This document shows, piece after piece, positions 5,948 through 62,978 of a stretch of DNA of 64,000 bases. Numbering within the stretch: position 1 is the first letter of the stretch; each line of letters begins with the position of its first letter. This DNA comes from Folioceros fuciformis (Eukaryota). The notes below the pieces were generated by a model. That model had not been told where the DNA came from and did no database searches. It was given only the letters and a program-made list of their open reading frames with translations. The stretch covers positions 71,897-135,896 of the forward strand of contig JBNGIO010006003.1 of the NCBI GenBank assembly GCA_049999805.1. The letters run 5' to 3'. A program made the position numbers and the translations under genes.

Positions 5948-5959
5948 GCTATGATACCA
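5948..5959 (-). promoter_or_regulatory. Primer-binding site (tRNA-iMet type)
   Basis: Minus strand reads TGGTATCATAGC, one mismatch from TGGTATCAGAGC, between the LTR and the gag ATG at 5909. Confidence 0.85.
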
Positions 5960-5962
5960 ACA

Positions 5963-6665: not shown

Positions 6666-7007
6666 TCGTGGTTCATTGACCATGGCTCGGCCACCACTCG
6701 GTCCTCGGCCTTGCTGCGCAGTATTGCATCTTATTTTTGTTAAATATACCGAAAAAGACGGAATGAGCGCGTTCTTTACGGTAAGCCTATGCAGAACGCC
6801 GGGTCCTATGTGAACAGCCCTTCAGGCGAGCATTCGCTACTCCATAACGGAGTCCCACGTCAACCCATCTAGGTAGATAGTTAGCTACGGTGTGGGCACC
6901 TTGTCCTTTCAAATTAAATTGTTAACTTCCCCCTTTAAGCTCGGTAGGCTTGGTATGCGATGCGCAGCGAGCGACAATTACCTTGAACACTCTGGAAGCA
7001 GGTGCAG

Positions 7008-8851
7008 ATGGCATCCTCGGACGATCTGGTGTATTTGGTGCGGCAGTATGGCAGACAGCATGCGCAGAAAGGTGTTGCCTTGCCCGCTTGGTGGCGTGTA
7101 GCGCAGAGTTAGGGCTAGGACTGCACGATTGACGTTGGTAGTGTGTGCTGCTGTTCTTCGCGTGCAGTCACTTCAGCGGAGCGGCTTGTGAAAGAATTGA
7201 GAGCTCGAAGCTTGGAGGTTGAAGCGAAACTTGCAGCCAGTTGTGTCTCACTCGATATCGCGAAATTGGAGAGGAACCGTGCAGAGAATGAGCTGAAAGA
7301 ACTCGCCACAGAGCTTGCTACATTGGAAGCAAGTGTAAGAGCCCGGCAGGTAGATATTTAGTGTCTTCGTCCGCCTGAAGTGGACTTGTCTATTGATGTG
7401 ATACCTTATTAGAATTGTTGCATGCGTGTCGTGAGGCAGGCAAGAATACAAAACCGGCAAGCAGACATTGCTTCATTGAGAATGCGTCTCGAAGAAGCAC
7501 ATGTTAGGGCCACACAACCTCTGCAGCCATGCCAGTGAGGCAGTTTTTCCAATTATTTTTTACTCTGGTGCGAATGCCCCTTGAGCCCTAATCTGGTTGC
7601 TGTGGATTGGTCGCCAAGCTGGAGGAGGCAAGGTTGAGGTGAGCAACGGCTGCAGTGCTCCGTTCTGGTTTGGTTTGTTTGGTAGCTGTCGCATCTGACT
7701 TGACGGCTGTTTTTTCCACTTTCTCCAGAGACAAATTCATTTGTGACATACAACTCCAGAACAGCGAAATGAGGTACGTGAAGCTGGAAGGGTTGGAGTA
7801 GCCTGGGAATGATTCATTTGCAGGAGTGTGGCTGAACTCTGTCACTACGCTTCCTCTATCAGAAGGATGAATGCAGAGCAGAGTCAACGTGACCTGAAAC
7901 TGATTCTGTTAAACAAGCGTCAACACCTGGAAGGTCCGATTCCTATTGGTGGTTGGGAGCAGTCATCCACAGTTCCGTTTTTTTAACAAAAAGTGACAAC
8001 TCTACGCAGCGTTGAGGGCCGAGGTAGCCCTGAGTCAAGCGCACCAGGCTTGCCCGGTGGCTCCGGATGCAGGTGAAGTTGGCGGAGCCTGTGTAGAGAC
8101 GGATAAGGAGGTGACAGCCCACTCGTCGACTATCGAGCTGAATTCTTGCTCACTGGAGGCTTTGTAACATGAAACAAGTAGAGCACTTATTACCACTGCC
8201 TGCTGGCTGCAGATGGATGAGCGGCTAGACCTGGTTGAAAGGCTGGCTCAAAGCAAGCAAGAGTTGGAGGCTTTGTCCATATATCCTGCAAGACTTGGAT
8301 CTTTGTCAATTCTGAGCTTGGCCCTCGTTGGTACACGGTTTGGAAGTCGACTGGAGCCAATGGCGTAGCCACCCTGTTGCTTGCAAAGACGGTTTGAAGC
8401 GTGCCGTGCCCTTGACTTGCAATTCCACGACCGCGCATCTAGAAGATATGTCGAGGTTCTACAGAGGCGAGTTGGTGAAACAAGTTGTTTGCCCAGACTG
8501 CAGGTCTGACAACATGGAACAGGTGAGACCTTGTGGCCTAGGCCTTCTCACGATGATCGGCACTCCATTACACGCCGCTTGTGAAAACACTGTTATCCAA
8601 TGCATCTTTCCCATGGTCTGCGTGTTATCATATCCTGGCTGAACTTGCACAAGCAGTGGAATGAAAGAACTAAGTATCGGTCCAGGAGTCCAGAAGTCTC
8701 GAAGACGAAGCAAAATGCCAGCGTGACTGAAATACTGTACGAACAATCCCAGCGGGTGTCGTTGTGTGGAAGGCAGTGGAAGCAGCTGGGGGGGGGCGGA
8801 GGCCGACAGATATCCTTGGGCGATCTCCGTTGCAACGGGAGGGAACAGTAG
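7008..8851 (+). CDS. Coiled-coil protein with C-terminal CxxC motif, SCEP2-like (synaptonemal complex central element); 8-9 exons
   Basis: Phase-consistent exons 7008-7071, 7177-7349, 7440-7534, 7729-7773, 7863-7933, 8010-8110, 8213-8280, 8429-8522, then 8657-8851 or read-through to a stop at 8642. Protein MASSDDLVYLVRQY...AERLVKELRARSLEVEAKL...AKLERNRAENELKELATELATLEASVRARQARIQ...DKFICDIQ...LEDMSRFYRGELVKQVVCPDCRSDNMEQ matches the recalled At3g28370 family pattern. Confidence 0.75.
8281..8428 (+). other. U12-type (minor spliceosome) AT-AC intron
   Basis: 5' site ATATCCTG; branch point CCCTTGAC at 8409-8416; 3' end ...TTCCAC at 8428. Splicing keeps the frame (AT+G = Met). Confidence 0.8.
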
Positions 8852-9147
8852 AGGATGTGGCGATAGGATGTCAGATGATAGGAAAACGACACTAATTGAT
8901 AATTGGACTTCTCCACGTCGATTGAGCTGTACTTGTCCAGCGCTCCAGGCAAGACCATATCTGTGGGTTATCAGTCCGGCTGTTGTCCCTTCCCACATGT
9001 GGATGCAACTTCAGGAGTTTGCGAGCACCGGTTGCAGACTCGGCGAAGCAAGTACTGTACATACATAGTGTACACGTTTGAGCGGACTGGTTGCAGCATG
9101 TGGGAGGATCTGAATTGGCAGAAAGTCGGGGGTTTGGCAGGTGGCGC

Positions 9148-27246: not shown

Positions 27247-29977
27247 TTACCAAGTGCCTTTCTTCTTCTTTGGCCGTGACCGTTCTTCAATGCCTCTAAA
27301 TTGTACCAGCTTGTTTGTTCCATTGTTTGGGACCAACTCCTCTATCCTTGTCATTGTACTTGAGGCCTCATCCTTCCGAGCCGCAATCTCCCTAATACGA
27401 TGTTGTGCTTGTTCCATTATTGCACAAACCTCAAATAAGATATTAGGTTGTGGTTCGACCATGCTTGGAATACTCATACATATTGCATCCAAGTCTCGTC
27501 GTCTTTTCAACTTCAACTCTTCTAAGTTTTTGGGTTACCTCAAACTAGGTGTCACACTGCAAGTCGTGCTTTGTAGCATTACTTCCTGAGGGTTATGCAT
27601 TTCTGTCACATTGGTCTCAACAACAACATTGAGGTCAGGTAATGCACTACCTCCATCCTCTGCCCCAGCATGATATCCATTGGTACACCATGCAAGGTGC
27701 AAAACATGAGAAGTATGTTCAAATANNNNNNNNNNNNNNNNNNNNNNNNNNNNNNNNNNNNNNNNNNNNNNNNNNNNNNNNNNNNNNNNNNNNNNNNNNN
27801 NNNNNNNNNNNNNNNNNNNNNNNNNTGCACTACCTCCATCCTCTGCCCCAGCATGATATCCATTGGTACACCATGCAAGGTGCAAAACATGAGAAGTATG
27901 TTCAAATACACCACAAACTTGTTGCACCTTCACAACATCTTTGCATAGAAAACCTTTTTGCCCCATTGCACAACTACAAAATGCCCACGGTAAGTGTGCT
28001 GCCTCAATAACATATATTTTCTCACTACCTACAGAGGACATGCAATATGCCAAAGTAGACCCATCATCTAACGGAAATGTGACAGCTGTGTTTGGAATGG
28101 TTCTTACTGCAAATAAAACATGTTCATATACCTTCTCTAGCTTCGAATTTGGCCTGTAACCACCAGCCTTAGTGAAATCAAGGTACCAATAATGACGTTC
28201 TACCTCATTCACTAGTTGATGCAAAAGCCAATCCATACGCCTTCCTGGTAGCGCTGCTTTAGTGAAAGACACTCTTTCCTTCAAAAAGCGATGAAAGGCC
28301 TCCAATGCAGACGTGGTATCCTGTCCGGCGTGAGGATACAACGTGCAATTCTTCAACCACATATCTGCCAAAAAAAAAAAAACACCAGTATACTCCTCAC
28401 CCAACGTACGTCCAAGAACACAGCCCTTAAATCACGAAAAGGACACTGCAACATAGAAGCAAAATACTTATAGATTCGCCCCATTGTTTCTTGAAGTACT
28501 CAACAAATGTTGGTTGGCTTCCATGCCACTCCTTATAGAAGAACTCTAATAATACACTAGCCCATGCAACAATATTCTCATTTGTGCCATGGCCTTTCAC
28601 ATACATAATATCTGCAAGCGCAGCCTAAATTTTCTTCCTTGCAATACTACATATCACCTTCCTCAAAAGGTTTCGTTGCCATGCCTTCCTAACATGCCAT
28701 AAGCACAACACAACATGTATATGTGCCCCTCATTACTGTTTCAATGCACCTATGTCTGCCAAACAATTATCAACTAAAAAACAACTAGGAACCCATGTTG
28801 CACATGTGTTGAGAGCTACTTGTTGGAGCAGCTTCAACCATGATACTAAAGAAATGATAGTACTCTCCTGTGTTAGTGCCCAAGCAACTGGAATACCATT
28901 TAGGTGTTGATTAAAAACCATCACAGTGAATAAGTGGTACTGATACTTGTTCGTACCAAATGTGGCATTCATGGCTAAAACACTATTTATCCTATGCTTA
29001 ACTAACATTTGCTGCATGAAAGGAGTTTGCAATCCTAAAACAAATGGTTCACCCGGCTCTGACCTATGGAAGATAAGGTCAGGATTCACTTTTAACGACA
29101 TTTGGGTTGACTTTGCATCATCTGCACGGAGTTTCCACTCACTTGATTCCACCTCCCGTTTCATGTTCAACACATCCTTGCGCTACATGTAGTCGTCTCG
29201 AATGTCATCTCCAGGTCCATGTTCAGAATAGTGCGCCATCTTCTCGTACACAACTGCAATATGTCGACGCATAATCTTCGACATAGAAACCTTGCAATAA
29301 AGACAATGTTTCACCCAATCCTTCTCCTTCGAAAGCCAAGGAGCTCTAGACATTTTAGAATGACCCACATATTGTGGGCCGTGACAAACTTCACATTCGC
29401 GATCTACATGCTCTCCTTCACGAAGGAGGATTTGAGCCACATCTGGAAATAAAAGCAACTGCTTTACAACAAAATCTGCCATACATCCAGTTTTCATTCG
29501 TACATTCTTCGGTGTCGTGCATTCTCTATAATCTTGCAGTCCATATGAGCACCAATATCTACATAGGTAGTCAAAATATATATTAGGCATATGTACCCTT
29601 CAAATTGGTAACTACATCATGTTAGATTTAGTGGGCACATAACCTAGCAAAGAAAAAGTCTTGTCAAACTTAAACATAGTAACCTACAAACATGTGGTTA
29701 GAAAAAGCTATGGAGTGCAACAACTTGGAGGAGGAGATCAATCATACCTAATGTATGAGCTTGCAGTCTCCAGGGACGGCACAATTGGTATATGCAAGGA
29801 ATGTTCACTCTTCGAATCCTTCCGGTAGAAGCTTGCAGCGCATCTCAAGCCTTCTCCAGAAACAAAGTCATCCACTCTACTCCAAGGAATATAAGCAACC
29901 TTCATGTCCTTCACTACCTGCCAGCTTAAATCATCTGCACTGAACTGCCCAAGTGTCGGCGATTGAATGGTGTGCAA
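27247..29977 (-). pseudogene. Decayed MULE-type DDE transposase with SWIM zinc finger (At1g60560/At4g13970-like family)
   Basis: FSADDLSW..VAYIPWSRVDDFVSGE; YWCSYG..GC..FVVK..CHGP; FVLGLQT..AMNATFGTNKYQYHLFTVMVF..GIPVAW; LEAFHRFLK..RRMDWLLHQL; SWIM CSC..GFLCKD. Multiple stops and frameshifts. Confidence 0.85.
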
Positions 29978-31160: not shown

Positions 31161-32031
31161 CTAAGACTCACTCCGGTCGAGGTCCCCAGGTTTGCTCTCC
31201 TTGACGCCGACCTTCTCGGCGAGCTTCTCCACATCTCTTTTGACGGCCTTGGCGGCCTCGACTGCCACGCCCTTGAGGCCTTCGGTGGTCTCTGCTGTTT
31301 TCTGAGGTATGCCCTTGAGCATGTCGGCGGCCGTGTTCACTTCCCGCTTGGCTGCGTTTTCCACTCCTTCCGCCATGGACTCGACCTTTCCGGAGACGTC
31401 TTTGGCCATTCCCTTGGTCGACTCTGGGGTTTCGTGAGTCGTCTGCTTCATCGCCTTCCCAGTCTCCTCCACTTTCTGCTTGGCCTTACCCGCCGCCTGC
31501 TCCGCCATCTCCTTCGTCTTGTCCACTGCGCTCCGAGCCGTCTCCTTGCCCTGCTCCATCATCTCCTGCGCCTTCTCCTTAGCCTGGCCCGCGGTCTCCT
31601 GCACCGTCTCCTTGGACCGGTCGGCAGCCTCGTCAGCCTTGCGCGCAGACTCCTTGAAGATGCCATGTGACTCCTCGAGCGCGTCGCTCCCTCGGGAAGA
31701 CGATGCCTCGTCCCGGGCCTCCTCGAAGGGTTTGTGGTCGGCGCCGCCTTCGTTCACCATTTTCGCCGCCTCATGTTTCTCTTCGTGCGTGTCAGTGCTC
31801 TTTGCAGGCTGCAGCACCGAAGGGAATGTCAGAGTGCTCACAGGACAGCCCTGCTCGACCGCTCAACATCAGCAATCTCAGCTTCAGCTTAAGACTCACC
31901 TCGCTTGCGAAGAGCCTTGTGAGTGCAGGCCTTGCCTGGCCGCGGAACTGCAGCTGGCATTCTCTCAACTTGCTTCTGCTGCCCTGCTGTATCAACTTCA
32001 GCAGCCCGCTCGTCCTCGCCGTGCTTCCCAT
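31161..32031 (-). CDS. Group-3 LEA (LEA_4-like) protein with N-terminal organellar presequence; 2 exons
   Basis: Exon 1 32031-31900 (MGSTARTSGLLKLIQQGSRSKLRECQLQFRGQARPALTRLFASE), GTGAGT...CTGCAG intron, exon 2 31808-31161 in phase 0. Contains A/K/E/T-rich 11-mer-like repeats (TAGQAKEKAQE, AAGKAKQKVEE). Confidence 0.85.
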
Positions 32032-34387: not shown

Positions 34388-34831
34388 CTAACGATAGGAC
34401 TTTTGAAAGCGGGCACGAGCACCACGACCTCCAAACTTCTTGGGCTCACAGCGCCGGGGATCGGCCACTAGCAGAGTCCTGTCATACCTAACGAGGATGT
34501 CCTTGATCTCCTGCTTCGACTGCTCGTCCACATACTTCTGGAAGTAAGCCACCAGGGCCTTGGCGATGCTCTGCCGGATGGCATATATTTGCGAGGTGTG
34601 GCCTCCGCCCCTCACCCGGATCCTCATGTCAACCTCAGCAAAGCGTTGGCGTCCCAGTAATAATATAGGCTCAAAAGCCTTGTACCGCAGAATTTCCGGC
34701 TCCACGAGCTCGATGGGGCAGCCATTGATCTTGATCAGGCCTCGACCCCGCTTGCAGTACGTGACGGCCACGGCCGTTTTCTTCCGCCCGAAGCACTGTA
34801 CAGACGGCACGGGGGCAGGTAGCGCTGCCAT
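34388..34831 (-). CDS. RPS16: 40S ribosomal protein S16 (uS9), copy 1
   Basis: [13 protein letters not shown]...[28 protein letters not shown] near 34925 and telo-box-like TAACCCTAG near 34938-34946. Confidence 0.98.
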
Positions 34832-35085
34832 GGCTGAAATGCTCACGTCCCTGACGGCAACAGATTGCTCCCGTCGCCGCCAAAAACGAATGAGGACTGA
34901 CGATTGGGGCACAATAATTGACATTTATAAACAAAGGCTAGGGTTAGGAGTTCCAGCCCTCTCAAAAACACACCAACCCATGCAACAAAATAGGGCTGGT
35001 CTGGACTTCGCCATTACACATGTATGGCCTGGTTTGGTCTTAGAAGCTATCCATCTACGTGCACTGGTGAGCGAGATGCGAGCCA

Positions 35086-38108: not shown

Positions 38109-39060
38109 GGATAGTGGTGAGGAGAAAGGGGAGACGAATGTAAGGAAGGACAATATTGCGCGACCAAATTTGCAGCCCTCGAGTGCATGTGCACCAATGG
38201 AGTTGGAAGATGGTGAAGGGAGAACGAGTGCAGATATGTCTGAGAAAGTAGGTGTCACGTGCATTGGGGTTGCACAGTTGTACATGCTTGAGCTGCAAAA
38301 AATCCTTGGAACTGATGAGGATGCACTTCAAATTTGCAGATATCACCTCAGGGTGCACTGAAGGCACAGACTCCGAGTGAAGAGCTGCTAGAAAAGCGCT
38401 TCGCTTTGCAGGCTCCTGGTGCTAAGGTGGCGAGGTCGTCAATGGAACTGCGAGAAAGGCTCCTTGCTTTGCGGGCTCACTGTACTACGGTGGCAACCTC
38501 GTTGGACGTGGTTGGTAGTCCTTCGAATTCTCCAACTTCCATACCGATTCATGCACTTAATGTCCTGCCACCCGCTGTAGTAGAGGATAGTGGTGAGAAT
38601 AAAGGGGAGACGAATTTAAGGATGGACGACATTGCACGACCACATTTGCAGACCTCTAGTGCATGTGCACCAATGGAGTTGGAAGATGGTGAAGGGAGAA
38701 CGAGTGTAGTTATGTCTGAGAAAGTAGGTGCCACATGCATTGGGGTTGCATAGTTGTACAGGCTTGAGCTGCAAAAAATCCTTGGAACTGATGAGGATGC
38801 ACTTCAAATTTGCAGATATCACCTCAGGGTGCACTGAAGGCGCAGACTCCGAGTGAAGAGCTGCTAGAAAGGCGCTTCGCTTTGCAGGTTCCTGGTACTA
38901 AGGTGGAGAGGTCGTCTTTGGAAGTGCGAGAAAGGCTCCTTGCTTTGCGGGCTCACTGTACTAAGGTGGCAACCTCTGTGGACGTGGTTGGTAGTCCTTC
39001 GAATTCTCCAACCTCCATACCGATTCATGCACTTAATGCCCAGCCACCAGCCGTAGAAGA
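38109..39060. repeat. 476-bp tandem duplication (2 copies), preceded by a 39-bp duplication at 38041-38120
   Basis: ORFs at 38334 and 38810 start with near-identical text exactly 476 nt apart. Confidence 0.92.
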
Positions 39061-39889
39061 TCGAAACTCAGTTCCCGCCATGCTATTAGTAAGGCTAGAT
39101 CCAGAGCCAGCTCTCGTCATGCCACAGGCAAGGCCAAGTCCAAAGCCAGTACTAGTTCATGTCCAGCCATCAGCAGGAGCAAATCTAGAGCCGCCAACTA
39201 GAGAAGATGAAATCCTAGTCCTTGTTCAGTCGCCAACATCGGGGTGTCCAAATCCATTAAGTTTGGAGGCTTGTCAAGAAACAGGAAGCCATCGGGAAGA
39301 AGTTGATATTGAGGAACAAAGAGAGCAAGAGCAAGGCATACCACATACTATGCCTACACAGGAGCCCCTAATTGATGAGGAGTGTGAGAGAGTGTTTACC
39401 GGATACATACTTGGGAGGCTAATTTTGAACCGGGATTTGTACAAGGACCTTCCTCCTCATGAGGAGTCCAAGACAACACATCAAGAAAGATGTGCAAGAG
39501 GTCTTCCACTGCCACTGCTGTCTAACTTTGAGCAAGTCCCAGGCGTAATGAAGGAACGCCCTAACTGCAAACATTATGACTTATTGCGGGATTCAGAAGC
39601 AGCTTGGTTGGAGTATCATTTTCGTCATCAGGTTCAGCATGACATTTCTGTTCGCGTGGATCAGATGCTTGAGAGCGAGGAACATGACCCTATTTGTCTT
39701 GAATGTGAAAATGAGGGAATTAACAGGTCAGAATCTCTGACAAGGGTACAGGAGGCAGCCCCAGTGGAGGAGAACGAAGACTCCGTTGAAGACCATCAGA
39801 CGAGCAGAGATGAATGGGTGGTTCGTCTCTTAGAAGAACTCGATGAGACACAAGATGAAGTTCCAGATTTGAACGAAGCTCAAACATAG
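38110..39889 (+). CDS. Orphan spliced ORF or gene fragment (possibly TE-derived) with a duplicated 128-aa unit; start not found
   Basis: Removing two 92-nt GTAGGT...TTGCAG introns (38248-38339, 38724-38815) gives an uninterrupted frame to the stop at 39889. In-frame TAGs lie just upstream of 38110. Confidence 0.5.
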
Positions 39890-41201: not shown

Positions 41202-41645
41202 CTAACGATAAGACTTCTGGAAGCGGGCCCGTGCACCACGACCTCCAAACTTCTTGGGCTCGCAGCGTCGGGGATCGGCCACTAGCAGAGTCCTGTCATA
41301 CCTAACGAGGATGTCCTTAATCTCCTGCTTCGACTGCTCGTCCACATATTTCTGGAAATAAGCCACCAGGGCCTTGGCGATGCTCTGCCGGATGGCATAT
41401 ATCTGTGAGGTGTGGCCTCCGCCCCTCACCCGGATCCTCATGTCAACCTCAGCAAAGCGCTGGCGTCCCAGCAACAATATAGGCTCGAAAGCCTTGTACC
41501 GCAGGATTTCCGGCTCCACAAGTTCGATGGGGCAGCCATTGATCTTGATCAGACCCCGACCCCGCTTGCAGTAGGTGACAGCCACAGCCGTTTTCTTCCG
41601 TCCGAAGCACTGCACAGACTCCACGGGAGCTTGTGGCCCTGCCAT
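41202..41645 (-). CDS. RPS16: 40S ribosomal protein S16 (uS9), copy 2
   Basis: Protein identical to copy 1 except for the N-terminal residues ([10 protein letters not shown] vs [10 protein letters not shown]). Confidence 0.98.
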
Positions 41646-41789
41646 TGCTGTGACCCTCCGGTCGCCGCCTGCAACAGATGTCTCCCGTCGCCCCCTAGCG
41701 CTGATAGAGCTTTTGAGATGTATACGGTTGACATATTTATATAGACAGAAATTAGGTTTAGCAATTTCAAGCCTCGACAGGGTGGGCTA

Positions 41790-55331: not shown

Positions 55332-58300
55332 TTACCCTGTGAGAACTCCTGCTAGAATCTCGCTCTTGCCACGAACTGTAATGGTGTAGGCGAGGCGGAT
55401 GGCATCCAGCCACCCTTCCATCAGCTCCCAGGAATCTGCTACCTGCAGGCCGACATCGTTTTCAGGATCAGAAGAGAGGCTGGGGTTCAGGTGGCGGACA
55501 GCAGGGAGAACGTGGAGACCGGACTCACAAAGTATTGTTGCCTGGTGCTTGTGTCGATCCGGAAGCCGCCCCCCACAGGCAGGCTCAGGTCGGCAGATGG
55601 AGTCATGTAGACGATGTCCTCCAGCTCCATTCTGAAGGAGGAGATCTTGACCGGTGTCTTTGCCATGGACGGACTCGAGGGCTCCGACCCGCCTGGGTTA
55701 GTTATCCTTCGCGAGAAATTTTTGGCGAGCTTCTCTTCTGGTTTATCCATCTTGCAGGTTACACGGTCAAGATCGATTCACGTTAGGGCTTACAAAACAT
55801 TCCTCAGCACTCAAAAGTGAACCAGGTAGGTGCACTGAAGTTCGATAGATACCTCGTAGAACGCCTCATGGTCGATGACAAACCACAACCTCTTCCAGTC
55901 ATTATGCGGGGCTAGAGAATCATCCCCGGGATGAACAAGCAAGTAGCCTGCCTTCAGGTATGGCAGAGGAAGCTGCAGCCATTGCAAACACTGCATGTCA
56001 GATGGACGTTTCATCACGCGTCACAAGAACACAATCCCAAAATTCTCATCGTCTTCTAATAGACTCAGGAGGGGACGAACGAGCACCATTGATCTGACAA
56101 GCCGAAGAGCACTCCTGTAAACCTGCCGGCTTCAACCCACACAAGACTAACGGTGAGAACACAACACAGCACAACTTCAATTGGGCGTGAAGCCTACCAG
56201 AGCCCACAGAGGAAACAATCTACAAACTTCGATGGTTCAAGAGGATCCAATGACCAACCGGATAGTCGGGCTTCAAAGAATGTGCAGCGGCGATGTAGAT
56301 GGCTGATTGGCTGTACAGTTCAGAAGGCATGTGGTCTGGTCGAGATACTTTCCGACCACTTCGAAGCGTGTCCTCAGCTAGGCCATACTGCACATGGCAC
56401 AAGGAAGTTATTGGCTTGCAATATGCATTTCAGGAGTGAAATGCAAAAAAGGGGAACCACAGGGCTCCGTCATCTCAACACACTCACCAGGACAGTACCC
56501 AGGTTGTACACTGCTCGATGAAAGTCAAAGCGGAGTCCTATTGCAGCCCGAAACTGCAACAGAATCAAACGAGTGGTGAGTTTCTCCCTTAGGCAAAATG
56601 GATGAGGCAAAAGTGACGACAAAAATTGCAGCTCAACTGTCTTTCACCCTTGAAAGCAATCGACTCGTGGTGTCGGTGAGCGAGAGAGGGGAATGGGTGG
56701 CGGTGGGGAATGAGGGTGCTGCAGTCTATACTTAGCTTACCTTTCTTATTGCACTCCTTATGATTCCACGCTTCTCCTTAAGTGGAACTATAGCGCCAAG
56801 CTCCTGCGACAGTCGACACCCTTCAGAAACTTTGCAAACATATCACACGGGACCAGTCCGTGTTGCAAACAGTGGGTTGTCCCACCTGCAGTGCCAGTCC
56901 CCAGTTGTTGAGAGCCTGCAAATCACCACAAGAGTTAATCGTCTGTGCTAGGCAGTTACTCACGACAGCACCCTTTTCAATACAAAAGCAACTGCTGATC
57001 TACAAAAGAATGCCCTGAGATGCTAGGGCCCAGGCATCCACCTGCGGGCTGTTCCAGTTGAGCTGCAAAGACCTTTCGTACTTCTCACAAGCCTGCACAG
57101 GTGCCCAATGACCCCACTTATTTCTATCCCCACTGCGAGGACTGAAGGGACCCTAAACTCGAAGCCTGCAATGCACAATCCAATCCCATAAACTTGAAGC
57201 ACAAACAGGGAAGTTGGAACAAAACCTGCTTCCAAAGTTCCTCTGCCTCCTTGGTTCTACCCCTGATCTTTGCACGATCAGAAATGGCAATCGCCCAGTT
57301 GTAGTACGCCTGGTTGCAACCATCAAACTCTCACTGTGAGAATCGCTGAATAACACATGAACAACAGCTTCTCCCACCACCGGAAAGATGGCCCCAGGGC
57401 CCGGAAACTGGAAAATACAGGGTGTTCACACCTCATGGAGCGACGGGCAGATACTAATCGCAGCTTCGTACTTGCTGCACGCATCTTCAAGCAGCACATC
57501 CTTTCCCGGGGGGCCACCATCTAGTGGCGTGTTATCCGCGGTTTCCTGCGCCCACGTACAAAGAAAAGACTCTGAAAAGAGCAACGCCTCCTGAGCCCCC
57601 AACCCACAGTCCCGACGATCATGACACCCAACCTCCCACGAACTCCGCACCAACTCACCTGGAGCACCAAAGCCCAATTGTACATGGCATCGAAGTCATC
57701 CGCGTTGGCAGCAACCGCCCTGGAGTACCTGAACCAAAACAGCCCAAATCCCACAATTCAGCATCCCGATCCCAGGATCTCGCTCACTCACAATCCAATT
57801 CTCACCTCCTGGCAGCAAAAGACAACATCCTTTGCCGAGAGTGCTGATCATCCTCCCCAGGCACTGCACTACTGCGGANNNNNNNNNNNNNNNNNNNNNN
57901 NNNNNNNNNNNNNNNNNNNNNNNNNNNNNNNNNNNNNNNNNNNNNNNNNNNNNNNNNNNNNNNNNNNNNNNNNNNNNNCTTCTCCTCCACGATCTCACTC
58001 ACATGCGCTTGAACTTCCACGTGCACTTGCTCCCCGGTCACCTGCTCCTCGATCTTCCCCAGCTGCCCCTCCACTTTCTCTTGCTCCTCAATCCTCTGCT
58101 CCTGGATCCCATTCCCATGCTCCTCGATCTCACCCACCTGCCCCTGCACCTGCTCCCGCTCCTGCTCCTGCTCCTCGATATCGCCCGACTGCTCCTTAGC
58201 CTCCGTCACAACCTCGGGGTGCCCCTCCACAGGTTCCTCGATCTCACTACCCCGCACGGCCTCCTTCCCACAGTCCTGCTCAGGCTGCTGATCAGCCTCC

Positions 58301-58730: not shown

Positions 58731-61700
58731 CTACTGGCTATCTCCGCAAGAACAGAAGCCATCCTTAAACCGATGAACGCGATGGGCATCTCTAATAATT
58801 ATCTCTCGATGTTCTATTCTCGAGATGACCTTGGTGCCGGCGTGGCAATGGCCACACATCCTGAGATTCTTGCTGACCACCAGAGTGGTGCCCGGAGGGG
58901 TGTTGAGGAGGCCGAAAGCTAGAGCCAGCTTTTCGGCATGTTTGCACAAGGCATCTTCACTTTCCTGGAGAGGTCCAGGCCCGAGCACCGGGTTCGAGTC
59001 CCTGCATGCCTCGAAAAGTGTGTTGAGGCTGTTGAGCTTGGCCGAGGTGTCGTCCCTACTTCTGCCTACTATGAATTCGTGTACCTGGCTACCCACCTCG
59101 ATGAGGGCCCTGGCGGGCTTCTTTTGGGCACCTGCGGACTGCATCATGGTTTCCACTTGGTCAACATCCGCCCACCTGCCCGCTTCTGCGTAGATGTCGG
59201 ACATGAGGGCGTAGGCGGAGGCATGTTGGGGTACCAGGTTCACGAGGCGGTGGAAGCAGCTCCTTGCTAGCTCGACATGGTTGTGGGCCTTGCAGGCTGT
59301 GAGGAGAGATGTCCACCCGATGGAATCCTGCTGTAGTGGCATTGTGTGGAGCATGGTTGCTGCTTCCTCCAGCCGGCCGGACCGCCCCAGGAGGTCTACC
59401 AAGGAGTTGTAATGCTCGACCTGGGGCTGGATGCTGTAGTCACGGGACATCATGGTGAAGTAGTTCTGGCCCTCGGTCACTAGACCCGCATGGCTGCATG
59501 CCGCCAGCAGACATGTGAAGGTTGCAGCATCAGGTTGGACTCCCTCTTCCTGCATCCTGGCGAAGCACTGCATAGCCATGGCGCAGTTGTTGTGCTGACC
59601 GTAGCCGCCGATGAGGGCGTTCCAAGTCACCAGATCCTTCCTCCCTGTACTATCGAATACACCCTGTGCGTCCTCCAGGTATCCGCATTTTGCATACATG
59701 TCCACCAGACTGCTACCCACAAACGCGTCATTTTCAAGTCCCTTGTGCAGGATGTCAGCATGTATCTGTTGTCCTTCCTGAATGGCTCCCAGTTTGCCAC
59801 AGACCTTTAATACACACGAATATGTGACAAGGTCAGGCGTCAAGCTTTCTTGCTGCATTCTGAAATATGCCTTAAGGCCATCGTGGCCGAGCCCATGCTC
59901 CGCGCATCCGGCGATGAGGGTGTTCCAGGTTGCCACATCTTTTGTCTGCAACCTTTCGAACAAGACACATGCATCTCCCATGCTTCCGCATTTGATGAAC
60001 ATGTCTATCAAGGCGTTCCCAACGCACAGATCTGATTCAAGTCCTCTTGCCAGAACCTCAGCATAAACCTTCCTGCCCTCCTCTAAGTTTCCTAAGCTAC
60101 CACATGCTTTCAAAATGCTTACATAGGTGAAATTGTCTGGGACCGCGGCACTCAGAAACATGCTCCTGAAAAGTTCTATCGCCTCTTGCCCCAGCTCATG
60201 CTGAGCGTAACCTGCAATCATGACATTCCATGTCACCAAGTCCCTGGCCAGCAATCTGTCGAATACTCTGCGAGCATCCTCCAAGCTCCTGCATTTGGCG
60301 TACATATCAACCAACATGCTCCCAACCAGCTCGTCCTCCTCAGCTCCTCTTTCCAAAATTTGGACATGAATCTGCCTGCCTTCGTGTAAGTTTCCAATGA
60401 TAGCACACGCTCTGAATAGGGCCGCATATGTGGCATTGTTAGGCACAATTCCATTCCCTTGCATCCTCATGTACAGCTTGTGGGCTTCATCCACAGGCCC
60501 CTGATGGACGTATCCCGCAATCATGGCAGTCCATGAAACCACGTCTTTTGAAGGCAATTTGTCAAACACCCGTTGGGCATCTTCCATGCTTCCGCATTTT
60601 ATGTACATATCTAACAGACAGTTTCCCAGTGAGCTATCAGCTTGAAGTCCCCTTTCAAGGACACGGGCATGAATCTGCTTGCCTTTCTCCAAGTGCCCTA
60701 CACTGCCGCATGCTTTCACAACAGCGACAAGGGTTACATGATTGCCTGCCAACTTCCCATCCTGCTGCATAAGGGCGTAAAGTTGAAGCGCTTCTAGACC
60801 TCGTCCATGCTGAGCATATCCTGCAATCATAGCACTCCATGTCACCACGTTCTTTTTTTGCAGTCTGTCGAAAACTCCGCGGGCCTCCTCCAGACTACCA
60901 CATTTGGCATACATGTCGACCAAGGTGCTACCAATATAGATATCAGCTTCCAGTCCCCTTTTCAGGACCTCAGCGTGAATCCCCTTCCCCTCTTGTATAG
61001 CTCCGACATTGCCACATGCTTTAAGAATGCTGACAAATGTGAAGTGGTTTGCTGGACACTTGCCCTCCTGCTGCATCTTCACATAAAGACTGAGCGCTTC
61101 CTGACCACACCCATTTTGAGCATAACCTGCAAACATAGCATTCCATGTCACAACATCTGTGCTCGGCAAATTGTCAAAGACATATCTGGCCGTCTCCAGG
61201 CTCCCACATTTAGCATACATGTCTACAAGGGCGCTCCCGACAAATACATTTGTGTCAAATCCATACTCCACCACATCCGCATGAATCAACTTGCCTGAAT
61301 CTAAATCCCCTGCACTGGCACATGATTTCAGGACAGCAGCCAGCACAAAATCAGTCGGTCTGACACTTGATTGTCGCATTCGCACATACAATTTGATAGC
61401 CTGCTCAGCCTTTCCATGGTCACAGTGTGCTGAAATGATCGAAGCCCATACGAAAGTGTCGGGAGCAGCCAACGTGTTAAAAACCCGCTCTGCTTCCATC
61501 AAACTCCCCGTGGCAGCGTACATCCGAATCAGGTAGTTCGCCATGAAACAGTCCAACGCAGACCCAACTTGTCCAGAGAGGGCATGGACACGCCTGCCCA
61601 CCTCAAGGTTTCTAGTCGCAGTGCACCCTTTCAGGAGAATGTACAACATGTCATTCGGGATGGAAATTCCTCTCCGGTGCATCACGTTCACAGCCTCCAG

Positions 61701-61802
61701 CGCACTTTCTAGCGCTCCCTCCGTCCCGAAATCTGCAAGCTCCAATAGGTCTTCAACAGCCCCCATCCTGCAGGGTCGATCAATACTGTACCACATAAAC
61801 AC
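58731..61802 (-). CDS. PLS-class PPR protein with E1-E2-DYW:KP domain (candidate U-to-C organellar RNA editing factor)
   Basis: About 23 P/L/S motifs, E1/E2, then KPARALIEV, HAEK, KNLRMCGHCH and C-terminus CSCGDSQ. Likely two small upstream exons from an ATG at 62200 splice to an acceptor at 61767. Confidence 0.95.
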   Translation of the reverse strand: MFMWYSIDRPCRMGAVEDLLELADFGTEGALESALEAVNVMHRRGISIPNDMLYILLKGCTATRNLEVGRRVHALSGQVGSALDCFMANYLIRMYAATGSLMEAERVFNTLAAPDTFVWASIISAHCDHGKAEQAIKLYVRMRQSSVRPTDFVLAAVLKSCASAGDLDSGKLIHADVVEYGFDTNVFVGSALVDMYAKCGSLETARYVFDNLPSTDVVTWNAMFAGYAQNGCGQEALSLYVKMQQEGKCPANHFTFVSILKACGNVGAIQEGKGIHAEVLKRGLEADIYIGSTLVDMYAKCGSLEEARGVFDRLQKKNVVTWSAMIAGYAQHGRGLEALQLYALMQQDGKLAGNHVTLVAVVKACGSVGHLEKGKQIHARVLERGLQADSSLGNCLLDMYIKCGSMEDAQRVFDKLPSKDVVSWTAMIAGYVHQGPVDEAHKLYMRMQGNGIVPNNATYAALFRACAIIGNLHEGRQIHVQILERGAEEDELVGSMLVDMYAKCRSLEDARRVFDRLLARDLVTWNVMIAGYAQHELGQEAIELFRSMFLSAAVPDNFTYVSILKACGSLGNLEEGRKVYAEVLARGLESDLCVGNALIDMFIKCGSMGDACVLFERLQTKDVATWNTLIAGCAEHGLGHDGLKAYFRMQQESLTPDLVTYSCVLKVCGKLGAIQEGQQIHADILHKGLENDAFVGSSLVDMYAKCGYLEDAQGVFDSTGRKDLVTWNALIGGYGQHNNCAMAMQCFARMQEEGVQPDAATFTCLLAACSHAGLVTEGQNYFTMMSRDYSIQPQVEHYNSLVDLLGRSGRLEEAATMLHTMPLQQDSIGWTSLLTACKAHNHVELARSCFHRLVNLVPQHASAYALMSDIYAEAGRWADVDQVETMMQSAGAQKKPARALIEVGSQVHEFIVGRSRDDTSAKLNSLNTLFEACRDSNPVLGPGPLQESEDALCKHAEKLALAFGLLNTPPGTTLVVSKNLRMCGHCHAGTKVISRIEHREIIIRDAHRVHRFKDGFCSCGDSQ

Positions 61803-62978
61803 AAGCTACTGACCCCAAATAGCTATCAACATGCCACTGCACGCCAAATACCTGAAAGAGTTTCCTTGGTTACATCCGTAGTCAACAACTGCGTCCCCAA
61901 CTAGTCCGTTCCTTGAGGGCAGGGCAGGAGCTCCCCCTGAACCCAAGTTTCGTCCAGTGCTTGATTGAGACCCAGGACAGAAGGTCCCCCTTGTCGTGCA
62001 GTGCATGAAGGCCGGATACATGCAGTTTCTCTGTGGTGATCACCGATAGTCAACTGGAAACTGTGGGCAAAGCAACGCTGGCCAGGTCTCAATGACCATC
62101 TCGAGCCTTGCACAACCCAACCAGATGGCAGGCAGATTGGAATCACAGCAGATTTTACCTTTAAGAACCCCCAATTCCACGACTGAGAGCGAGCGGCCAT
62201 GATTGTTGCCCCCATAACACCCCGGCCAATTGCAACACCTGCAAACCAGCTCAAACATCAACACCCATCCAGCAACCTCCTGCCAATCTAATCCGAGCCA
62301 TCACAGATACCCTGCGCATGACAACAGCTCACCATTTTCACATGGGTGGCGCTCAGCTGAGGCCCTTAAGGTCGACAAGCGCCTATACCATGCTTTCAAT
62401 GGCACGACAGGGCTGAATCTGCTCTGATTCAGCCAGGCCAGCACCATTCTTCCCTCAAGACGACCACTTCTCTTGGTCGCCCAGTGAGGTGACAGACTGC
62501 GGGGTAAGAAGTGCACAGGTACGCCTGGTACTGGGAAGCTGGACGTAGCGGCCTGAAACAGGCAGAACAGTAGTCGTTCTGTAGTTCATCGGGTGGATGA
62601 AGTCGTCCAGATACAACAAATCGTGTTCTCAGCTTTGATACATATATGTGAAACTTGCTGGGTACCGGCAAGTGACAGCATTGCGCACCTACAGCTATGG
62701 GTAAGTGCGCAAGACAAATTCTTGGTAGACCTTAGGGTTGTCTAGGGGTAGCTCTATGAAACGAGAAGGCGACAGCTTTCGATTCGACTCTTGAATCAGG
62801 ACAAGGTAGGCTGGATCCACTACAGGTGAATAGAATCAAAGCGTAGAACAGGGAAGGGCTCGTGCCAGGTATGGGGGCGTTGGAGAGAATGAGCTTGTGA
62901 GCTTTGGCTCATCAATCTTGGATCTGGGAATGTGAAATTGGCAGCTGTATCCATTGTTCCTGCTGGGGCCGTGGCGGA

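Follow-up and report, generated by a model that had tools for sequence, protein, structure and literature searches.

SCEP2 was reportedly described by Vrielynck et al. in 2023 as a central-element protein of the Arabidopsis synaptonemal complex, with homologues in all major angiosperm clades. In Arabidopsis and Brassica, the available passages of three papers (PMC12283363, PMC12711579, PMC13170185) place the SCEP1-SCEP2 complex at the synaptonemal-complex midline, dependent on SCEP3/ZSL and ZYP1 and required for synapsis and interference; in the accessible part of PMC12283363 the connection of SCEP1-SCEP2 to SCEP3 and ZYP1 is called open. Here, we describe a gene on the + strand at 7008-8730 of a window of 64,000 nucleotides, the whole stretch of DNA analysed, from the hornwort Folioceros fuciformis. 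The best explanation of the evidence as a whole is, with good confidence, that this gene is the single-copy hornwort orthologue of SCEP2 and encodes a synaptonemal-complex central-element protein.

Relation of the hornwort gene to SCEP2

The Arabidopsis counterpart was located with the SCEP2 cloning primer given in Supplementary Table 5 of PMC12711579. This primer has three exact matches in metagenome contigs, namely two genomic copies (L002 and L004, the latter also containing the SCEP2 forward primer) and one spliced contig (L003). The reading frame of L003 retrieved 96 proteins among 625 candidates; those that are named all come from flowering plants, and one is named At3g28370. Because the published primers match L002 and L004 and the product is named At3g28370, we take the Arabidopsis locus to be SCEP2.

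Combining the profile, alignment and intron data, we conclude from sequence that the hornwort gene is almost certainly the single-copy orthologue of Arabidopsis SCEP2, in support of an earlier note on this DNA that had proposed a divergent SCEP2 orthologue. A hidden Markov model built from 18 angiosperm proteins matches the spliced hornwort model with 58.2 bits, the best of 2000 heptad-block shuffles reaching 14.4 bits, and the match falls into two stretches, the N-terminal coiled coil (42.9 bits) and the C-terminal helix with the CxxC motif (20.9 bits). The hornwort and Arabidopsis models align end to end (blastp, 25% over 121 amino acids, E 3.6e-7), with a pairwise local score of 133, none of 3000 heptad-block shuffles exceeding 101. 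In the reciprocal direction, chestnut SCEP2 searched against the hornwort genome, an 87-Mb assembly used for all own-genome searches, finds exon 2 of this gene as the better of two matches (seven candidates scored), though the match is weak (E 0.51) because the genome search runs exon by exon. Exon 2 itself has one match in this genome, as expected of a single-copy gene.

The exon-intron structure is shared to the same extent. Both genes have ten exons, all nine intron phases are alike (1, 0, 0, 2, 2, 1, 0, 2, 0), for which the chance is about 5e-5 under assumed phase frequencies, and exons 3, 4 and 5 measure 63, 20 and 45 nucleotides in both plants. In the alignment, introns 1-5 coincide in position, for intron 1 on condition that a four-residue gap is put behind it; intron 8, which is of the U12 type in both plants, lies within one codon, and introns 6, 7 and 9 fall in stretches of variable length. 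The two proteins also have in common two predicted helical blocks and the CxxC tail, a motif preserved in the 43 full-length homologues that are listed. They differ in length (250 amino acids in the hornwort, 263 in Arabidopsis) and in the predicted second helix, which is shorter in the hornwort, whereas the genes differ in the ends of intron 8 (AT-AC in the hornwort, AT-AA in Arabidopsis) and in number, with one copy in the hornwort and further similar loci in Arabidopsis. Similarity beyond the coiled coil, a reciprocal best match, the exon-intron structure and a C-terminal helix with CxxC, the features by which we assign membership of the SCEP2 family, are all found.

Two other readings bear on this assignment. 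A chance likeness of generic coiled coils would agree with the searches of the SCEP2 family against Pfam and PDB sequences, which returned generic coiled coils only, but it is refuted by the shuffle controls, which keep the heptads, and by the shared intron pattern, so that its probability is negligible. The gene could also be a paralogue from an old duplication of the SCEP1/SCEP2 type. Its low identity to the orthologues would fit such an origin, and in an Atlas feature search with radish SCEP2 a plant family labelled HCMV_UL139 (PF12507), which we take to be SCEP1, stands at 0.89 beside the SCEP2 clusters. Nevertheless, the exon lengths of 63/20/45, the nine phases and the CxxC tail all match SCEP2, and the genome searches turned up only one such gene; paralogy is hardly credible and we retain the assignment to SCEP2. 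In searches with exon 2 alone, none of 401 candidates in a word-index protein search reached E<=10, no match at or above 0.9 was found in the Atlas, and tblastn against phages gave no match, which is uninformative; none of seven exon peptides exceeded the Pfam cut-off.

The gene is real and transcribed. It is covered from 6921 to at least 9125 by assembled, spliced contigs from one public RNA run (X1), which have no listed difference from the window; rare forms were dropped in this assembly, 8 of its 18 pieces are listed, and the joints are tabulated separately. Runs X2 and X3 yielded no sequence for the SCEP2 stretch. No run that contains this stretch is registered as RNA, although the X1 contigs are spliced. 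The 5' untranslated region (UTR) extends from the RNA contig start at 6921 to 7007, and exon 1 (7008-7071, 64 nucleotides, phase 1) extends from the start codon ATG at 7008 to a GT..AG joint skipping 96 nucleotides. Exon 2 (7168-7349, 182 nucleotides, phase 0), with the coiled coil, and exon 3 (7440-7502, phase 0) are delimited by RNA joints, and the micro-exon 4 (7619-7638, phase 2) by the joint 7502/7619 and a loose end with the sequence of exon 5 (7729-7773, phase 2), which is itself seen in RNA. RNA joints likewise delimit exon 6 (7863-7933, 71 nucleotides, phase 1), with the end of the first helix and the start of a variable linker, and exon 7 (8010-8110, 101 nucleotides, phase 0), with the variable linker; both have their phases in common with Arabidopsis. 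Exon 8 (8213-8280, 68 nucleotides, phase 2), which encodes the second helix, is placed by the joint 8110/8213 and the profile match, intron 8 (8281-8428, 148 nucleotides, AT-AC) by the sequence and its counterpart in Arabidopsis, and exon 9 (8429-8522, 94 nucleotides, phase 0), with the helix end, the CxxC knuckle and an N-x-E motif, by the 20.9-bit profile stretch and, for its donor at 8523, by RNA. The coding part of exon 10 (8686-8730), read by translation as 14 codons and a TGA, follows a GT..AG joint skipping 163 nucleotides, and the 3' UTR (8731-9125) is given as far as the listed RNA contig, spanning 8683-9125, reaches. Eight of the nine introns are supported in run X1, introns 1, 2, 3, 5, 6, 7 and 9 by joints, all of them GT..AG, and intron 4 by the loose end. 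Within the 5' UTR, two upstream ATGs read from the sequence (6955-6986) could damp translation: the first, at 6955, is out of frame and its frame overlaps the SCEP2 start, and the second, at 6960, is in frame and opens a frame of 8 codons with its stop at 6984-6986.

The earlier note had described a multi-exon coiled-coil gene with a CxxC exon and an AT-AC intron. This description stands, with one frame from the ATG at 7008 in the sequence, but the exon count and the gene end had to be revised. By hand-read donors and acceptors, exons 1-9 form one open frame from ATG 7008 to 8522 (236 codons), with the two cysteines of the CxxC motif at residues 226 and 229 of the hornwort model. Up to the end of the CxxC exon there are nine exons rather than the eight proposed, because omission of the 20-nucleotide exon 4 breaks the frame, and an eight-exon model was rejected on this ground. 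Because the RNA joint after exon 9 skips 163 nucleotides, the last exon is placed at 8686-8730, and the gene has ten exons and a product of 250 amino acids; the end at 8851 put forward earlier is the stop of a frame reached via acceptors unseen in RNA and was likewise rejected.

Relatives of the gene were sought among 1.84 billion representatives with a profile that included six hornwort exon peptides, one of them misaligned. This search gave 293 matches at E<=0.001, the best 150 of which are listed, and ten divergent matches that were looked up come from Ginkgo, Diphasiastrum, Selaginella, the liverwort Calypogeia and six angiosperms. In phmmer with the hornwort model, Ginkgo Gb_35050 (63 bits), Selaginella XP_024542037.1 (46 bits), Diphasiastrum KAJ7519327.1 (42 bits) and Calypogeia CAM6107629.1 (30 bits) are among the best matches, and the three seed-free homologues score 51 to 68 bits against the chestnut protein alone. 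None of these homologues, which are known from protein alone, is named SCEP2, and the full CxxC tail is in place only in the Ginkgo model; the Diphasiastrum model ends at a Y-P motif and the Calypogeia model runs into one, as read-through of an ATATCC donor predicts. Mosses, Marchantia, ferns and algae are not among the 150 of 293 matches listed and could be among the other 143, and a word search with the divergent profile gave five matches among 8000 scored and no new lineage. In a quick tree of 19 sequences the hornwort model stands on the non-angiosperm side, beside the lycophytes, Ginkgo and the liverwort, with supports near 0.8. Because members are found in hornworts, liverworts, lycophytes and seed plants, we date SCEP2 to the ancestor of land plants. 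The proposal that the gene places an SCEP-type central element in early land plants is less strong than stated if it rests on this gene alone, because the unnamed lycophyte and liverwort homologues were already in public protein sets.

In the available part of Feng et al., homologues of SCEP1/2 are reported as absent from Taxus and Marchantia and SCEP3 and ZYP1 as present, in a species list without a hornwort. We regard absence calls by PSI-BLAST as weak for SCEP2, because models of this family are often cut at intron 8. In the literature that we could search we found no report of SCEP2 in bryophytes or other seed-free groups and no full-text mention of AT3G28370, and the preprints likewise gave no report of a SCEP2 homologue; because most subscription journals lie outside this search, the result is not proof of absence.

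Intron 8 and the CxxC tail

Intron 8 of the hornwort gene starts at 8281 with the U12-type donor ATATCCTG, has the branch site CCTTGAC at 8412-8418 and ends with the acceptor AC at 8427-8428; 3 nucleotides further on there is another AC in frame. We count as U12-type an intron in which an RTATCCT donor and a CCTTRAC branch site 10-20 nucleotides before an AC or AG end are found, as they are here, with donor and branch site each one base off the usual consensus. On both strands of the window there are 20 RTATCCT sites, and only that of intron 8 has a CCTTRAC branch site 40-500 nucleotides downstream. A search for minor-spliceosome small nuclear RNA genes, which covered U12 and U6atac, found both in the genome above the Rfam cut-off (95.1 bits and 101 bits, respectively). 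A second U12-like copy (C5069:10190-10341) scores 47.2 bits, below the cut-off.

For the AT-AC intron of the earlier note, the donor, branch site and AC end are thus there in the sequence, while its removal from RNA is not seen in X1, in which the contig of greatest depth (47.9) continues from 8211 to 8523 without a splice. We read this result as retention and not as absence of splicing, because contigs drop rare forms, and part of the retention as general incomplete splicing, because minor contigs also keep introns 3, 6 and 9. Run X1, the one RNA run with the gene, gave no spliced form of intron 8, and the protein of 250 amino acids is therefore deduced. With intron 8 retained, the frame closes at a TAG (8366-8368) about 150 nucleotides before the last junction, and the product has 233 amino acids and lacks the CxxC exon. 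Alternatively, intron 8 is no longer spliced in the hornwort, the 233-residue read-through form being the working product and exon 9 a relic. Such a loss would account for the retained form being the only one seen, at the highest depth of the gene, and for the two departures from consensus. However, the E-L-x-K and CxxC-x-x-N-x-E pattern of the family has survived in exon 9 for more than 400 million years, the intron has an undamaged donor and branch site with their spacing kept, the U12 and U6atac genes are present, and Arabidopsis has a like retained form beside the spliced one. We consider a relic exon very improbable and favor an intron that is still spliced.

In Arabidopsis, intron 8 lies at the same place (L002:1476-1625), with the donor ATATCCTTT and AT-AA ends. 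Contig L003 has lost introns 2-7 and 9 and keeps intron 8 and part of intron 1. The fully spliced Arabidopsis protein has 263 amino acids (P0248 in the JGI gene calls; P0039, named as a cDNA, is in accord), and among four acceptors compared for intron 8 it is reproduced only by the one giving the AT-AA intron; with the intron retained, a stop inside it leaves 227 amino acids and lies about 240 nucleotides before the last junction. The Col-0 reference isoforms in the cluster are NP_189478.2 (292 amino acids), ANM64641 and its kin (227 amino acids) and NP_001326656.1 (295 amino acids). These three retrieved reference isoforms read into intron 8 and are without the last 47 residues of the 263-residue form, the CxxC tail among them. 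Both two-hybrid reverse primers in PMC12711579 end 2 nucleotides before the intron 8 donor and give a 216-residue product. The forecast that automatic annotation would mis-model the gene because of its minor intron therefore holds even for Arabidopsis, in which the retrieved reference isoforms run through the donor.

The extent of this read-through was counted in 247 retrieved proteins, a redundant set rich in Brassicaceae, with a regular expression for the Y-P mark. Ninety-two homologues end before exon 8. Among the remaining 155, the mark is found in 80 (64 without and 16 with CxxC); 57 have a clean CxxC end, and 18 show neither pattern. Errors of gene prediction, and not transcripts, probably account for most of these marks. 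The marks indicate all the same that the intron 8 donor occurs widely, in Diphasiastrum and probably also in Calypogeia. Because 80 of the 155 homologues that reach exon 8 carry the read-through mark, the CxxC tail, the most conserved short motif of the SCEP2 family, is under-represented in databases.

The closest described introns are the plant U12-type AT-AC introns that are spliced with DROL1 and TTL, the subject of two preprints (bioRxiv 10.1101/2020.10.19.345900 and 10.1101/2025.02.25.639993). Donor, branch site, end dinucleotides and the tendency to be retained are alike, whereas the Arabidopsis copy of SCEP2 has the rarer AT-AA ends; the available main texts of both preprints are without the SCEP2 gene.

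Proposed function of SCEP2 in hornworts

The protein layout is taken from the AlphaFold model of the Amborella orthologue (mean predicted local distance difference test score 87.9), which has helices at 5-126 and 155-242, a disordered linker, a cysteine knuckle and a short last helix. Modelled on it, the hornwort protein is predicted to begin with an N-terminal helix of about 120 residues, followed by a disordered linker, a second helix, the CxxC knuckle and a short last helix. A Foldseek structure search gave 0 matches, and structure comparison by VIA-align matched long helices only (best Z 8.0, root-mean-square deviation over 90).

By analogy with Arabidopsis and Brassica, we suggest that hornwort SCEP2 likely acts as a central-element protein in spore mother cells. 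It would pair there with a SCEP1 partner via the coiled coils, SCEP3/ZSL and ZYP1 would recruit it to the midline, and it would be needed for synapsis and crossover interference. The anatomy of the gene suggests that full-length SCEP2 would require the minor spliceosome; retention of intron 8 would bring in a stop inside the intron, cost the protein its CxxC tail and leave the usual mark of nonsense-mediated decay, the type to which we assign the retained message because its stop lies about 150 nucleotides, and in Arabidopsis about 240 nucleotides, before the last junction. Minor introns are often spliced slowly. Slow splicing of intron 8 may limit the amount of complete SCEP2, and that the intron acts as a regulated limiter of SCEP2 is a tentative idea. 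A strict meiotic splicing switch is not supported, because spliced and retained forms both occur in the JGI gene calls and minor introns are so often slow: the 263-residue spliced form is found on 10 short JGI contigs and the retained forms on at most 4 and on 1, and the minor hornwort contigs are not selective for intron 8.

The CxxC tail is very likely functional. The position of the two invariant cysteines, where a helix ends, is suggestive of half a zinc site, and there is perhaps an even chance that they bind zinc together with two further ligands from a partner chain, forming a bridge.

Several observations weigh against reading the gene as a SCEP2 orthologue at work in meiosis. Over the N-terminal 118 columns, it shares a low 25-41% identity with the orthologues; the hornwort branch is long, and the tree is without a bryophyte group; the joint 8280/8429 expected of spliced intron 8 is missing from the joint table of X1, the sole RNA run with the gene; the tissue of X1 is not on record, and meiotic expression is not shown by the data; and a PF12507 search of the genome, made with no SCEP1 sequence as query, revealed no candidate for SCEP1 and gave one match (E 1.5). 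That match is a kinesin gene, and PF12507 was rejected as a route to SCEP1.

Some of these points would suit a true SCEP2 orthologue whose hornwort role lies outside synapsis or extends beyond it, for example a general coiled-coil adaptor that joined the central element only later, in seed plants: SCEP1 was not found, the gene is transcribed in a run without recorded tissue, and the absence of SCEP1/2 from Marchantia and Taxus with SCEP3 and ZYP1 kept, as given in the accessible part of Feng et al., would make the pair possibly dispensable. Those absence calls, however, suffer from family models cut at intron 8, and Arabidopsis SCEP2 also appears in JGI RNA-like contigs, so that expression outside meiocytes is no argument against a meiotic role. 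Synaptonemal-complex genes are single-copy, change fast in sequence and have a fixed exon structure, which the hornwort gene fits. We consider an adaptor role unlikely and prefer a function in the central element.

Among animal proteins, the small coiled-coil proteins SYCE1 and CCDC172/CCDC122 resemble SCEP2 in being central-element proteins that work as heterodimers; no alignment, however, backs homology. In the Atlas search with radish SCEP2, the nearest non-plant rows are clusters of CCDC172, SYCE1 and CCDC122 at 0.82-0.88, which below 0.9 are a lead only, and SYCE1 (PF15233) is not in the best 25 of 178 Pfam families matched by 61 alignment members. In the available literature passages on SCEP2 with SYCE1, no link between the two is drawn.

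Genomic setting and implications

The origin of the DNA in a seed-free plant, as the earlier note had assumed, is confirmed by a genome that is hornwort-like. RbcS has its best PDB match in 9chz (213 bits; the next 169 bits), presumably a hornwort Rubisco; no paper naming 9chz was found in the literature searched. An intron-bearing LCIB-like gene lies on contig C1919, where PF18599 is above cut-off in two exons of the one contig, and LCIB is found among land plants in hornworts only, according to the available part of PMC8075897. DYW-type PPR and F-box kelch genes in the window fit a land plant.

Upstream of SCEP2, at 2964 to about 6665 on the - strand, lies a long terminal repeat (LTR) retrotransposon of the Ty3/gypsy type with gag, protease and reverse transcriptase frames that contain stops; it has a tRNA-Met primer site near 5951-5960, and what is probably its LTR stops some 250 bases short of the point where the SCEP2 RNA begins. 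A gene that we take to be 40S ribosomal protein S16-like occurs as two intronless copies (34388-34924 and 41202-41786), with near-identical products, which flank what is presumably a DJ-1-like gene, and at 38319-39889 two open frames, of about 144 and 364 codons and alike at the start, form a direct repeat. The - strand further encodes a repeat protein of the LEA-like type (31161-31862), with weak helical matches only in Pfam, and a single-exon PPR protein of 1024 codons (58731-61805) with a DYW-type end that reads DSQ, likely a variant of an RNA-editing factor. At 293-676, 27600-27950 and 57700-58000, sequence recurs on the two sides of 100-base N gaps, more in the manner of an overlap from scaffolding than of a true duplication.

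A wider scenario for the family, which we regard as speculative and rather doubtful, is that every land-plant SCEP2 has kept a minor-spliceosome gate before its cysteine tail for more than 400 million years, that retention would yield a message without the tail and prone to decay, and that complete splicing in meiocytes would supply a form whose CxxC tip binds zinc with a partner and connects SCEP1-SCEP2 to SCEP3/ZYP1. If this is true, some reported weak or missing SCEP2 interactions would be artefacts of a tail-less protein, given that the tail is absent from the Arabidopsis reference models and from one or more published two-hybrid clones. Retesting the interactions of SCEP2 with the whole protein would be cheap, given that the reference models and one published clone set end before the tail. 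For the distribution of the family, a hornwort gene with nine Arabidopsis-like introns, together with the liverwort and lycophyte homologues, makes the reported absences of SCEP2 suspect.

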